Positions 90 to 4,566 of a DNA stretch of 64,000 nt are shown here, piece by piece. The position numbers and the translations under genes were made by a program. Source of the stretch: Escherichia phage N4. The stretch is from sequence record NC_008720.1; one strand, written 5' to 3'. How positions within the stretch are numbered: the first letter of the stretch is position 1; each line of letters starts with the position of its first letter. A model generated the notes under the pieces. It was not told the origin of the DNA. It was given only the letters and a program-made list of their open reading frames with translations, and did no database searches.

Positions 90-108
90 GTTGCTTCGCA
101 ACTTATGG
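90..108 (+). promoter_or_regulatory. Candidate vRNAP-type hairpin promoter Pa (GTTGC-TTC-GCAAC then TTATGG)
   Basis: 5-bp GC-closed stem with 3-nt loop; template-strand loop GAA has a central purine; same architecture as the elements at 559 and 4546; lies upstream of the first early ORF. Confidence 0.5.
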
Positions 109-153
109 ACATGTTGTCCGTATCTTATCAATCAACTATTGGAGACTAATACT

Positions 154-480
154 ATGACTACTCAGGCTAACGTTCGTATGACTGTAGGAACTCTGTTGGG
201 TACTGTTAATGAAGCAGCAACTACTGTAGCTGATACATTCGGTACTGCTACTAAAGCAGTAGGTATGCTTAATCGTTATGTAACTAAACAAGCAGATAAA
301 CAAATCATTCGTGACAAATTAGAAATGCATGAGTTTACCAATAAACTTATTGAGGAAACTGCAATGCAAGAGGCTATTCGTCAGAAACAAATCTTAGACT
401 TCTGCAAAGATGAACAAAACAAAGAATTGTTCTCTAATGCCTATGACCGTCTTAGCAAAATCTTAGCAGACTCTAAATAA
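154..480 (+). CDS. Hypothetical early protein (108 aa)
   Basis: ATG at 154 preceded by GGAG; the track ORF 91..480 begins at an upstream TTG; no recognisable motif. Confidence 0.55.
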   Translation: MTTQANVRMTVGTLLGTVNEAATTVADTFGTATKAVGMLNRYVTKQADKQIIRDKLEMHEFTNKLIEETAMQEAIRQKQILDFCKDEQNKELFSNAYDRLSKILADSK

Positions 481-492
481 TAACAAACAAAT

Positions 493-517
493 GGAGGCTC
501 CTCGGAGTCTCCTTTTA
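493..517 (+). terminator. Rho-independent terminator-like hairpin
   Basis: GC-rich stem (GGAGGCTC/GAGTCTCC) followed by CTTTT. Confidence 0.45.
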
Positions 518-558
518 CATAGAACCGATAGTTCAATAACTATCTACTTTAAAGAGAA

Positions 559-577
559 GAAGCTCCGCTTCTTTTGG
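559..577 (+). promoter_or_regulatory. Candidate vRNAP-type hairpin promoter Pb (GAAGC-TCC-GCTTC then TTTTGG)
   Basis: Reverse complement AAAAGAAGCGGAGCTTCTT closely matches my recollection of the N4 early promoter P2 hairpin; 5-bp stem, 3-nt loop, template loop GGA. Confidence 0.6.
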
Positions 578-684
578 ATGAAGTAATGCATCCAATCCTG
601 TATGAAATCTTAACCTTTTGTCTGGGATTACTTACCGACAAAGTAGTCTCAACTAATCAAAATCAATTATCTGGAGAGTACAAA

Positions 685-1071
685 ATGGCTATCACTACTT
701 TTGCTAAAACCTTTGGTCAGGCTTCTACTAAAACTGAATCCAACAATGGTTCTCGTCCGAAAGCTCAGTTCTGGATTAACGTTGGCTATGTAGCTAATGA
801 AGGCACTGAAGATGAACGTTTCATCTCTCTGCCTACTGGTATTCCACTGGATACTCAGGAGCATCTGCCAACCAATTCCTCTAACGAAGACTTCCGTGCA
901 ATGCGTTGTGCACAGAACGATTTGTTAGACCAACTGATGGAATTTGCTAAGACTCTAGAACCGGGTCAAGAAGGAGTTATCTCCTTGCAAGTTCAACTTC
1001 GTCGAGTTAAAGAAGAAGCTCCTGCTATCTCAGCAAGTGAGAATAAATATGCTCGTAAACTGACTTTCTAA
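685..1071 (+). CDS. Hypothetical early protein (128 aa)
   Basis: ATG at 685 with GGAGAG 7 nt upstream; track ORF 574..1071 starts at a TTG inside the promoter hairpin region; start uncertain (alternative ATG at 586). Confidence 0.5.
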
Positions 1072-1078
1072 TCTCTAT

Positions 1079-1105
1079 AGGACTACCTTCGGGTAGTCCT
1101 TTTTA
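1079..1105 (+). terminator. Rho-independent terminator
   Basis: 9-bp stem AGGACTACC/GGTAGTCCT, loop TTCG, then TTTTT. Confidence 0.7.
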
Positions 1106-1171
1106 ATTTTAACTATCTAAATACTAAAGTAGAGATTTTGACCCTTTTCGACGAAGGGATACTAAAAAGTA

Positions 1172-1528
1172 ATGGATAGTTTGAGCAGATGTTTTAGAAG
1201 AAGGAATATACAGATGCACCCTCTTATAAAACGGTTCCTGATGGACTATCAGGAGTGGTTAGATAATGGAGCCAGTGAACCTCACTACCTGTTTGATAGG
1301 GGTAGTGGGCTATGTGTTCAACTAGGTAAATATCTTAGAAGACAGCCAATCAGTGAAGAAACAGTAGATGCTCTGTGTAAGAGCTTTACTCATTTACTTC
1401 CTGATAATGATACCAATCTACCATTCAATGTAGATGTTCTCGACTACATGATGGAGTGTTCTGATGGAAGATGTCATCTGAACCAGAGTCGAATTAATTG
1501 GATTAAGAGCCAGTTGGAGAGTAAGTAA
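1172..1528 (+). CDS. Hypothetical early protein (118 aa)
   Basis: ORF track; no recognisable motif. Confidence 0.5.
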   Translation: MDSLSRCFRRRNIQMHPLIKRFLMDYQEWLDNGASEPHYLFDRGSGLCVQLGKYLRRQPISEETVDALCKSFTHLLPDNDTNLPFNVDVLDYMMECSDGRCHLNQSRINWIKSQLESK

Positions 1529-1531
1529 ATT

Positions 1532-2519: not shown

Positions 2520-2521
2520 AT

Positions 2522-2555
2522 AGAAGGGGGCTACTAAGCCCTCTTCTTATTTTTA
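2522..2555 (+). terminator. Rho-independent terminator
   Basis: Stem AGAAGGGGG/CCCTCTTCT followed by TATTTTTAT. Confidence 0.55.
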
Positions 2556-2592
2556 TCATGGTTATTAAGCAACTATCTTAGAGGAAGGAATA

Positions 2593-2808
2593 ATGGAACA
2601 GTTAAACTACGGTTATAAGATTAAACGCAATCAAGTAAGAGGTTCTTGGTTATTTCTCGTTTATGGTAAGCCAATCTATGAATTACATCGTGGAGAGAAA
2701 TCCAAGACCTATTACGTAACTCATATTGCTACAGGAAAAACTCCTGCATGTGCAGGATTGCTTCGTGATGCAATTATGAAAGCATGTATGTTAGAAGGAC
2801 TTCTATGA
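2593..2808 (+). CDS. Hypothetical early protein (71 aa)
   Basis: ORF track; preceded by GAGGAAGGAATA. Confidence 0.5.
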   Translation: MEQLNYGYKIKRNQVRGSWLFLVYGKPIYELHRGEKSKTYYVTHIATGKTPACAGLLRDAIMKACMLEGLL

Positions 2809-3119
2809 ACCAAATCATTGCTATCCCACAGCATAAAGCTCGTATTGCTGACAGGAATATTCGTATTCATTATCCAATGCCTTTGAGCAATCCATTTCAG
2901 AAAAATGAAAGAACCACGGATGAAGATATAGCAGCAGCTTATGAGGCATATCTTCGTAACCGTTTGGTAAGTGGTGACAAGCTCATTACGGCTGAAATGG
3001 AACGAATTGCTAAATTCGTTATAGATGATACTGACAAACCAGTTGGCCTCATCGGTAATGAACTGGAAGTGAATGTAATCCGTAAGATTATTATGGAGGC
3101 TCTTAATGGGAATCAGTGA
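2805..3119 (+). CDS. Hypothetical protein, possible degenerate DUF4326-like (104 aa)
   Basis: ATGA overlap with upstream stop; PLSNPF and AAAYEAYL resemble the N-terminal motifs of the ORF at 3605. Confidence 0.45.
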   Translation: MNQIIAIPQHKARIADRNIRIHYPMPLSNPFQKNERTTDEDIAAAYEAYLRNRLVSGDKLITAEMERIAKFVIDDTDKPVGLIGNELEVNVIRKIIMEALNGNQ

Positions 3120-3282
3120 ATCCCAGGCTATGGCTATTAAACAGTTAGCCTTCAACTGCCTTAGTGCTATGAAGGTATTTAATGAAGCAAAAACTTTCCC
3201 TGACCAGAATAAAGCTCGTATTCGGCTTTATCAGTCTAAGAAAGATTTTGAAGAATATCTGGAAAGTATTACGGTGAGATAA
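3106..3282 (+). CDS. Small hypothetical protein (58 aa, below ORF-track cutoff)
   Basis: Fills the 3119-3282 gap; stop overlaps the next ATG (TAATG), consistent with translational coupling. Confidence 0.3.
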   Translation: MGISESQAMAIKQLAFNCLSAMKVFNEAKTFPDQNKARIRLYQSKKDFEEYLESITVR

Positions 3283-3602
3283 TGAAAACAATACTAATTG
3301 TTCATGATGCTGATTTTAATGATGTTGATAAAATGATGCGTAATATTGATTATGTAGCTCAGACATCTCCAGCATTTAAAGAAGAATTTACTCTATATTG
3401 TGATGCTAATTCACCATTAGTTCCTATTCTGAAAGAGGCCGGTTTACCCTTCTATACAGATAATTTCCCTAAAGAACCTGATTATGTAATTTCATTTATT
3501 TATGACTTACATGATGGTTCAGAACCAAGTGAATTGGCTATGAGTCAATGGCAATCCAGAAGACCTGTATATGCATTTCAGGTAGTTAAATCAAGGAGTT
3601 AA
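3282..3602 (+). CDS. Hypothetical early protein (106 aa)
   Basis: ORF track. Confidence 0.5.
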   Translation: MKTILIVHDADFNDVDKMMRNIDYVAQTSPAFKEEFTLYCDANSPLVPILKEAGLPFYTDNFPKEPDYVISFIYDLHDGSEPSELAMSQWQSRRPVYAFQVVKSRS

Positions 3603-3604
3603 CT

Positions 3605-3973
3605 ATGTTAGGTGATAACACTAATGCTCTGTTTGGAGTGTCAGCCAGACCTATTATCATTGTTAATAAACATCATGGTAAGAAAGGTGAATATATTGGG
3701 CGTGGTTCTCCTCTGGGTAATCCATTCGTTATTGGTAAAGATGGAACCAGAGAAGAAGTAATTGCCAAATATAAAGTATGGCTACAAGAACAGATTGATA
3801 AAGGTAATCCAGTTGTACTGGATGAATTAAATCGTCTTGGTAATAAAGCCATTGATGAAAAAGGATTAGCTTTACAATGCTTCTGTTATCCAAAACCTTG
3901 TCATGGTGAGGTTATTAAAGAGAAGTTAGTAAAAGCTATGTATAACTACTTTGTGGAAAATCCTAATGGATAA
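3605..3973 (+). CDS. DUF4326-like protein (122 aa)
   Basis: GSPLGNPF near the N-terminus and CFCYPKPCHG near the C-terminus, as I recall for the DUF4326 family. Confidence 0.5.
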   Translation: MLGDNTNALFGVSARPIIIVNKHHGKKGEYIGRGSPLGNPFVIGKDGTREEVIAKYKVWLQEQIDKGNPVVLDELNRLGNKAIDEKGLALQCFCYPKPCHGEVIKEKLVKAMYNYFVENPNG

Positions 3974-4151
3974 ACAATGCAAATGTGGTAAAGGCTATGT
4001 ATCCCAATGGGATGGTAAGTGTGGTCATTGTAGAACCAAGAAAGAACAACGTGACCATGAATATGCACTTCAGGAAATGATTGTACCTGTTGAGAATTTA
4101 GGTATGGCTCCACTTGAGGCTTACAAATATATAAGGAGATTATGCAAATGA
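3966..4151 (+). CDS. Small Cys-rich (zinc-ribbon-like) protein (61 aa)
   Basis: CKCG...CGHC motif; ATG at 3966 overlaps the upstream stop. Confidence 0.4.
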   Translation: MDKQCKCGKGYVSQWDGKCGHCRTKKEQRDHEYALQEMIVPVENLGMAPLEAYKYIRRLCK

Positions 4152-4528
4152 AAGAAGTATTCGTATTTGGTTCTAACCTAGCTGGTGTACATGGTGCTGG
4201 TGCTGCAAAGACAGCATATAAAAAACATGGAGCCAGATGGGGTAAAGGGCATGGTCATTATGGTGACAGCTATGCCATTCCCACTAAAGATACCAATATC
4301 AAAACGATGACTATTGAAGACATTCGTACATTTGTAAACGCCTTCATTGTCTATGCTGCTAATCATCCAGAACTTAACTTTAAAGTTACTCGTGTAGGTT
4401 GTGGATTAGCTGGTATTGATGATTCTGTTATGGCCTCTATGTTTAAAAATGCCACTGGTAACTGTTCCTTTGACTTAGCATGGAAAAGTTACTTAGGGGA
4501 TGATTTCAACTACTGGGGGACGTTCTAA
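4142..4528 (+). CDS. Small Rossmann/SLOG-like protein of unknown function (128 aa)
   Basis: N-terminal VFVFGSNLAGVHGAGAA glycine-rich strand-loop motif; family assignment uncertain. Confidence 0.5.
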   Translation: MQMKEVFVFGSNLAGVHGAGAAKTAYKKHGARWGKGHGHYGDSYAIPTKDTNIKTMTIEDIRTFVNAFIVYAANHPELNFKVTRVGCGLAGIDDSVMASMFKNATGNCSFDLAWKSYLGDDFNYWGTF

Positions 4529-4545
4529 CTCATACGTTAGGCAAT

Positions 4546-4566
4546 AAGCTGCTCCGCAGCTTTTGG
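4546..4566 (+). promoter_or_regulatory. Candidate vRNAP-type hairpin promoter Pc (AAGCTGC-TCC-GCAGCTT then TTGG)
   Basis: Same loop TCC and downstream TTTTGG as Pb; sits just upstream of the RNAP II genes. Confidence 0.55.

Follow-up and report, generated by a model that had tools for sequence, protein, structure and literature searches.

We analysed a 64,000-nucleotide stretch of the Escherichia phage N4 genome (NC_008720.1, one strand, 5' to 3'; hereafter the window) and conclude, with very little doubt, that three small hairpin sites close to its left end are P1, P2 and P3, the coliphage N4 early promoters used by the injected virion RNA polymerase (vRNAP). These promoters are already known, and the identification adds nothing to the N4 field's knowledge of 1985-2008. 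The sites lie on the + strand at 90-108, 559-577 and 4546-4566, with loop centres at 96, 565 and 4554, and all three are intergenic, on one strand and within the first 7% of the window. A sequence-only reading of the same DNA had placed them at these positions and assigned them to the N4 vRNAP type; positions, strand and sequences are confirmed, and the assignment is supported because every published determinant is present at the sites and the genome encodes a vRNAP with the contact residues. The names P2 and P3 follow the left-to-right order and the N4 P2 template strand, which presumably reads CATCCAAAAGAAGCGGAGCTTC.

Site 1 (90-108) reads GTTGC-TTC-GCAAC-TTATGG, with a stem of 5 bp. Site 2 (559-577) reads GAAGC-TCC-GCTTC-TTTTGG, where flanking AA/TT lengthens the stem to 7 bp (557-573), and site 3 (4546-4566) reads AAGCTGC-TCC-GCAGCTT-TTGG, where a 7-bp stem is possible (4546-4562) around a 5-bp core (4548-4560). 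Common to them are the heptamer GCTYCGC with its TYC loop, a stem of 5 bp or more and a 4-nt spacer of T and A that leads to GG; the architecture proposed from sequence, a 5-bp GC-closed stem with a 3-nt pyrimidine loop and TT(T/A)TGG downstream, recurs at every site. On both strands of the three sites the hairpin is also the minimum-energy fold of single-stranded DNA (-3.3 to -7.2 kcal/mol, z -2.3 to -4.4).

Placed in promoter coordinates, P1 occupies 90-107 (-17 to +1), the + strand shown being the non-template strand and the functional hairpin lying on the template (- strand). Its arms are 90-94 and 98-102, its loop is TTC at 95-97 (template GAA, with A at -11), its spacer is TTAT and its predicted +1 is G107. 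P2 occupies 557-576 on the + strand, with core arms at 559-563 and 567-571, a TCC loop at 564-566 (template GGA, with G at -11), the spacer TTTT and a predicted +1 at G576. P3 (4546-4565, + strand) has core arms at 4548-4552 and 4556-4560, a TCC loop at 4553-4555, the spacer TTTT and a predicted +1 at G4565; it sits inside a 74-nt gap between the stop of open reading frame (ORF) 14 at 4528 and the gp15 ATG at 4603.

According to published work, N4 vRNAP promoters are conserved between -17 and +1, and inverted repeats flank a GC-rich heptamer whose centre is -11; a C:G loop-closing pair and a loop with 5' G and 3' A are needed, and the polymerase specifically recognises A or G at -11, G at -10, G at -8 and C at +1 of the template (PMC4496689). 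When the loop centres (96, 565 and 4554) are numbered -11, all three sites carry the full list of sequence determinants, and the architecture given by the sequence-only reading agrees with the published one. The heptamer is GCTTCGC or GCTCCGC, and the perfect stems are 5, 7 and 7 bp at sites 1, 2 and 3. Template loops are GAA, GGA and GGA, with G at both -10 and -8 throughout, the latter seen as non-template C at 99, 568 and 4557. Template C at +1 and +2 corresponds to non-template GG at 107-108, 576-577 and 4565-4566, which is a matter of sequence compatibility only. Counted from the loop centre, the predicted +1 is at 11 nt, which falls within the 10-12 nt that the sequence-only reading gave; it is also 8 nt from -8, compatible with a GTP-GTP start.

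P1 can be compared with a printed sequence. A 2025 preprint prints a P1 oligonucleotide ending in GTTGCGAAGCAAC (PMC12633501), and the P1 template hairpin, the reverse complement of 90-102, is identical to it. A 2026 review describes N4 promoters as GCGGAGC mini-hairpins with a GGA or GAA loop and a 5-bp stem, and gives a GCGAAGC core too (PMC13037366); the template core GC-G(A/G)A-GC at all three sites agrees with these mini-hairpins. The P2 template strand reads CCAAAAGAAGCGGAGCTTC, that is, four A's and the GCGGAGC core, and four A's are described as the ruler between N4 promoter stem and start. The reverse complement of 559-571 is GAAGCGGAGCTTC, which is also what the sequence-only reading took to be the N4 P2 hairpin; a full-text literature search for GAAGCGGAGCTTC returned unrelated papers only. 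The primary mapping papers for the N4 promoters are reportedly Haynes & Rothman-Denes 1985, Glucksmann 1992 and Gleghorn 2008.

An AT-rich phage genome offers many inverted repeats, and the sites could in principle be three of them. Perfect hairpins with a 3-nt loop and 5 or more stem pairs number 113 per strand of the window, and the heptamer by itself occurs at the chance rate (4 seen against 4.1 expected), its fourth copy, at 51871-51877 on the - strand, having a stem of just 3 bp. The combination of features is another matter. The consensus GNNGCTYCGCNNCTTWTGG, allowing at most 2 mismatches, has 3 matches against 0.18 expected; as this consensus was built from the three sites themselves, we also ran a separate a-priori motif made of published determinants only (heptamer GCTYCGC, a perfect stem of 5 bp or more, and a G located 11 nt past the loop centre). 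Searched over both strands of the 64 kb, this motif picks out sites 1-3 and nothing else; 2000 sequences simulated with a first-order Markov model gave 0.013 matches on average. Additionally, the sites share a strand, are intergenic and lie no more than 4.6 kb from the left end, and compensatory stem changes are conserved in other genera. Coincidence is therefore an account to which we give practically no credence.

Two further candidates were considered and set aside. The sole extra match to GNNGCTYCGCNNCTTWTGG at 3 mismatches, at 15133-15151 on the - strand, forms no hairpin and is no more than chance would give, and the hairpin AAGAAAG-TTC-CTTTCTT at 9179-9195 breaks the rules for -8G and the closing pair and lies inside an ORF.

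Comparison with relatives shows which features of the sites are held constant. We examined Moovirus Moo19, Gamaleyavirus PhAPEC7 and SP5M, a Klebsiella phage and 12 N4-like contigs from IMG/VR besides N4's own; in relatives belonging to other genera, hairpins stand at matching places, ahead of gp1, gp2 and the RNA polymerase II genes. The heptamer GCTCCGC is constant in the relatives, and the G at +11 is found without exception in the 31 distinct promoters of N4 and its relatives. The spacer is fixed in length at 4 nt and varies in sequence (TTAT, TTAA, TAAA, TTGT and TTGA in relatives). By contrast with N4 itself, the promoters of these Enquatrovirinae (Moo19, PhAPEC7, SP5M and the IMG/VR contigs) differ in their outer stems through compensatory changes, in number, with 3-5 per genome, and in the loop, TTC being confined to N4 P1; GCTCCGC, G at +11, the 4-nt spacer, placement and the vRNAP contact residues are alike.

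The arms themselves illustrate the pairing. P1 arms across genomes are GTTGC/GCAAC, CATGC/GCATG and ACATGC/GCATGT, in compensatory fashion; P2 arms are AAGAAGC, AAGACGC or AAGATGC, with a matching partner each time; and P3 arms are AAGCTGC, AAGCAGC or AGGTGC. Across the 31 distinct promoters, an alignment chosen for perfect stems, the two pairs beyond the invariant G-C/C-G next to the loop have changed on both sides in 14 and 13 cases and are never mispaired. Two tests of the stem are free of this choice: perfect stems of at least 5 bp accompany 52 of the 67 heptamers in N4-like genomes but only 3 of 234 in unrelated contigs, and all 14 matches to a P1 pattern with its 5' arm unspecified have perfect stems. 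A pattern for P2 with 16 specified bases returned mostly stemless chance matches from the sequence collection and was reused as a negative control. Taken together, the comparison indicates that the stem is required as a structure, its outer bases apparently being free so long as pairing is kept.

The same data bear on whether the hairpins could instead serve upstream transcripts, as intrinsic terminators or as elements of RNA stability. Sites 2 and 3 do have possible 7-bp stems followed by TTTT, and site 3 starts 18 nt past the ORF14 stop. Nevertheless, a terminator scan leaves sites 1-3 uncalled, and they fall short of the usual run of at least 5 T after the stem, with 4 T after the 5-bp core and 2 after the 7-bp stem. 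Site 1 has no gene upstream and lies 90 nt from the genome end, while site 2 lies 40 nt past a far better terminator. In relatives the spacer has no T-run, yet neither its length nor the G at +11 varies, which terminators leave unexplained, as they do the invariant loop and closing pairs. We regard a termination or stability role as very unlikely.

The polymerase that would read these promoters is encoded in the window. The vRNAP gene (gp50, 3,500 aa; 34523-45025, - strand) is an exact match to N4 YP_950528.1 over 34526-45025, and the contact residues K114, R119, W129, K267/K268, K849/K850, D901 and R904 stand at the positions named for them in review. At 67-68% identity to the N4 enzyme, the Moo19 and SP5M vRNAPs keep K114, R119, W129, D901 and R904; K267 is the only contact residue that differs in them. 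Because the base-reading residues are kept in polymerases that are only 67-68% identical, the pattern fits an invariant core read as sequence with an outer stem recognised as structure only. The window is the N4 genome from base 1: gp53 also agrees fully with its N4 counterpart, and both it and the vRNAP are each on record for a single 70,153-bp contig; the closest records in a phage collection are 98.4% identical and belong to the species Enquatrovirus N4, and a 70,153-bp N4 sequence in IMG/VR is identical to positions 1-2285 of the window, with the P1 and P2 patterns at equal coordinates.

Hairpins of this kind are also known from another setting, and the sites might be single-stranded DNA structure signals for a different process, either GCGAAGC mini-hairpins for primase or a replication origin, or signals for packaging or ejection. 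GCGAAGC-type mini-hairpins are priming sites in G4-type phages and ssiA (PMC13037366), and in several genomes P1 stands at a constant distance, 86-97 nt, from the left terminus. Each of our sites, though, stands directly upstream of a gene of the same polarity, with GG at a fixed 11 nt, and vRNAP has been reported to bind and initiate at the N4 hairpins (PMC4496689, PMC12633501). A second role as some other DNA signal is unneeded, and we consider such an explanation extremely improbable.

Some points weigh against identifying the sites as P1-P3. The mechanism draws on published N4 work, and what the present analysis contributes to it is sequence compatibility. The full P2 and P3 sequences were compared with the stated determinants and the GCGGAGC core only. 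Lastly, the percentage of paired positions in the 31-promoter alignment is circular, given how the alignment was chosen. Transcript 5' ends at +1, in vivo and in vitro, and a need for gyrase supercoiling and E. coli SSB have been reported for the N4 promoters (PMC4496689), and a modern genome-wide start-site map of N4 was absent from the literature searched.

The mechanism given here takes its steps from the N4 literature, whose stated requirements the sequences and the polymerase in the window satisfy. As the left end enters the cell, supercoiling by host DNA gyrase would cause the inverted repeats to extrude as small cruciforms; E. coli SSB would melt the non-template hairpin and spare the stable template hairpin. 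Binding of the template hairpin by the central polymerase domain of vRNAP would unlock the active site. The purine at -11 would be read by stacking of W129, and -10G, -9C and -8G through K114, R119, D901 and R904, with the beta-hairpin of vRNAP fixing the junction of double and single strand at -5/-4. The 4-nt spacer would act as a ruler, such that synthesis would start with two GTPs opposite template C, 8 nt downstream of -8. Rightward transcripts are predicted from G107, G576 and G4565, each unit would end at a hairpin with a T-run, and the products of gp1, gp2 and gp15-gp16 would be the transcription machinery for middle genes.

Several known systems help to place these promoters. The coliphage N4 promoters P1-P3 (PMC4496689) are the same objects, matching in number, position in the leftmost 10%, architecture and determinants; no difference was seen, the comparison with a printed sequence covering the P1 hairpin. 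Pseudomonas phages LUZ7 and LIT1 resemble N4 in having a stem of at least 4 bp, a 3-nt loop, an injected giant vRNAP and a start that prefers G (PMC3715699; PMC9163698), but the LUZ7 start is 13-14 nt away from the centre of the hairpin, as against 11 in N4, and nine early starts have been mapped there, some of them hairpin-less (PMC9163698). Single-subunit RNA polymerases of the T7 type are homologous to vRNAP and likewise recognise their promoters from -17 to about +1, by means of a specificity loop, an upstream recognition element and a beta-hairpin that intercalates. Whereas T7 promoters are recognised as double strands, N4 vRNAP needs a single-stranded template hairpin that is extruded by supercoiling and stabilised by SSB (PMC4496689).

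The first early unit holds a single gene, gp1 (154-480, + strand; 108 aa, an exact match to ABK54372.1), and is followed on the + strand by a terminator-like hairpin with a T-run at 493-516 (hairpin 493-512; 8 pairs, a loop of 4 and a TTTT tail); in SP5M a terminator is annotated at the equivalent place. The second holds gp2, whose long form of 161 aa (586-1071, + strand) is 100% identical to N4 gp2 ABK54373.1, followed on the same strand by a terminator-like hairpin with a TTCG loop and T-run at 1079-1105 (hairpin 1079-1100), at the equivalent of which terminators are annotated in PhAPEC7 and SP5M. The third holds gp15 (4603-5412, + strand; 269 aa, an exact match to N4 RNAP1 AAL71577.1) and gp16 (5460-6674, + strand; 404 aa), their 269 and 404 aa being the literature sizes of gp15 and gp16, the two subunits of N4 RNA polymerase II. 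It is followed by a + strand terminator-like hairpin of 11 pairs with a T-run at 6680-6712 (hairpin 6680-6705), and PhAPEC7 and SP5M have annotated terminators downstream of RNAP2.

Because these terminator-like hairpins close them, the three units can be delimited as gp1, gp2 and gp15-gp16, with predicted spans of 107 to about 516, 576 to about 1105 and 4565 to about 6712. These contents agree with the list of genes transcribed by vRNAP, namely gp1, gp2, gp15 and gp16 (PMC12633501). The sequence-only reading held that the three promoters fix both the orientation and the extent of the early units. Orientation and starts stand, but extent does not, since the ends are set by the terminator-like hairpins at 493-512, 1079-1100 and 6680-6705. 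The P3 unit in particular overruns the interval 90-4566 given for the early region, reaching about 6.7 kb, because its terminator-like hairpin is at 6680-6705; the interval covers the promoters, not the transcripts.

ORFs 3-14 (1172-4528) lie between the gp2 terminator at 1079-1100 and P3 and contain an internal terminator-like hairpin at 2522-2547, which with those at 493-512, 1079-1100 and 6680-6705 makes up the + strand terminator-like hairpins with T-runs. The a-priori motif, searched on both strands of the 64 kb, gave no hairpin promoter of their own for these ORFs. Transcripts of RNA polymerase II are described as covering the left half of the N4 genome, and either this enzyme or read-through may account for the expression of ORFs 3-14. 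Within window positions 1-9000, sigma-70-like matches were below chance (13 against 27.8 +/- 5.1 in shuffles) and + strand terminator-like hairpins above it (14 against 5.1 +/- 2.5). Elsewhere in the window, ARAGORN and Rfam identify four tRNA genes at 32451-33130 (Asn-GTT, Ser-TGA, Thr-TGT and Pro-TGG), tRNA-Ser being the weakest at 50.5 bits; N4 is said to encode three tRNAs (PMC3715699).

The start codon of the long gp2 form lies close to the P2 start. The long-form ATG at 586 is +11 of the predicted P2 transcript, and an internal ATG at 685, with a Shine-Dalgarno sequence ahead of it, gives a form of 128 aa. The roughly 100 nt that separate the P2 start (576) from the ATG at 685 extend gp2 in frame and without a stop in all 13 genomes compared (N4 and 12 relatives). 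This extension has 31-43 codons, its indels are all multiples of three, and it begins with ATG in 11 genomes and GTG in 2, at +9 to +12 of the transcript and without a Shine-Dalgarno sequence; the long-form start codon is thus 9-12 nt from the RNA 5' end, in a small conserved 5' hairpin. Annotations differ, gp2 being long (161 aa) in N4 and short (128 aa) in several relatives. The extension is hydrophobic, and membrane association has been reported for gp2, to which the extension may be tied; two gp2 isoforms are possible.

The predicted 5' ends of two transcripts can form stem-loops of their own: GGACA-UGU-UGUCC for P1 (107-119) and GGAUG-8 nt-CAUCC for P2 (576-593), the relative L017 having GGAUU/AAUCC, a double change that retains pairing. 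The signal is weak (z -1.4 and -1.9). With stem-loops on the P1 and P2 transcripts, none on that of P3, and these weak z-scores, a general rule that every early transcript carries one is unsupported. More broadly, further layers of expression may exist, in which ORFs 3-14 would be expressed through terminator read-through or non-canonical vRNAP starts like those of LUZ7, and the position of P2 would set a two-isoform output of gp2, the RNA polymerase II cofactor. We hold this broader reading to be rather unlikely.

Variation among the relatives extends to the loop, the number and the placement of the promoters. N4 P1 has the sole TTC loop (template GAA, with A at -11) among 30 transcribed-strand promoters; all relatives have TCC, and contigs with a P1 stem identical to the GTTGC stem of N4 still carry the TCC loop. 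Because promoters with a GGA loop bind vRNAP with high affinity (PMC13037366), N4 P1 may be a derived, weaker variant. The extra promoters in relatives, which have 3-5 hairpin promoters each, stand ahead of extra small genes: SP5M (L004) has one at 893-907 ahead of SP5M_0003 (941-1147), and L014 has them at 970 and 1233. In L020 the gp2 promoter carries a stem sequence found elsewhere at P3. In one relative a further hairpin with the canonical heptamer, AACGC-TCC-GCGTT, occurs within the terminal repeat at L009 509 and L010 7099 and is off the spacing rule, with C at +11 and G at +12.

In genomes deposited from their physical end, the P1 loop centre lies 86-97 nt from the left end (96 in the window, 92 in L003, 86 in L004, 95 in L009 and 97 in L014). 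P1 stands at both ends of two IMG/VR contigs (L009/L010 and L014/L015), carried by exact terminal direct repeats of 1,160 bp and 404 bp. A search for a second P1 copy in a right-end terminal repeat found no repeat in OLB145, and P1 occurs once in the 70,153-bp N4 sequence, whose right end falls beyond the window.

These findings identify the left end of the window as the end injected first and place the early starts at 107, 576 and 4565. They also name the genes read by the injected polymerase (gp1, gp2 and gp15-gp16), which anchors annotation of the window. The comparative data restate, from sequence, the published rule that the core of the promoter hairpin is read as sequence and its outer stem as structure.

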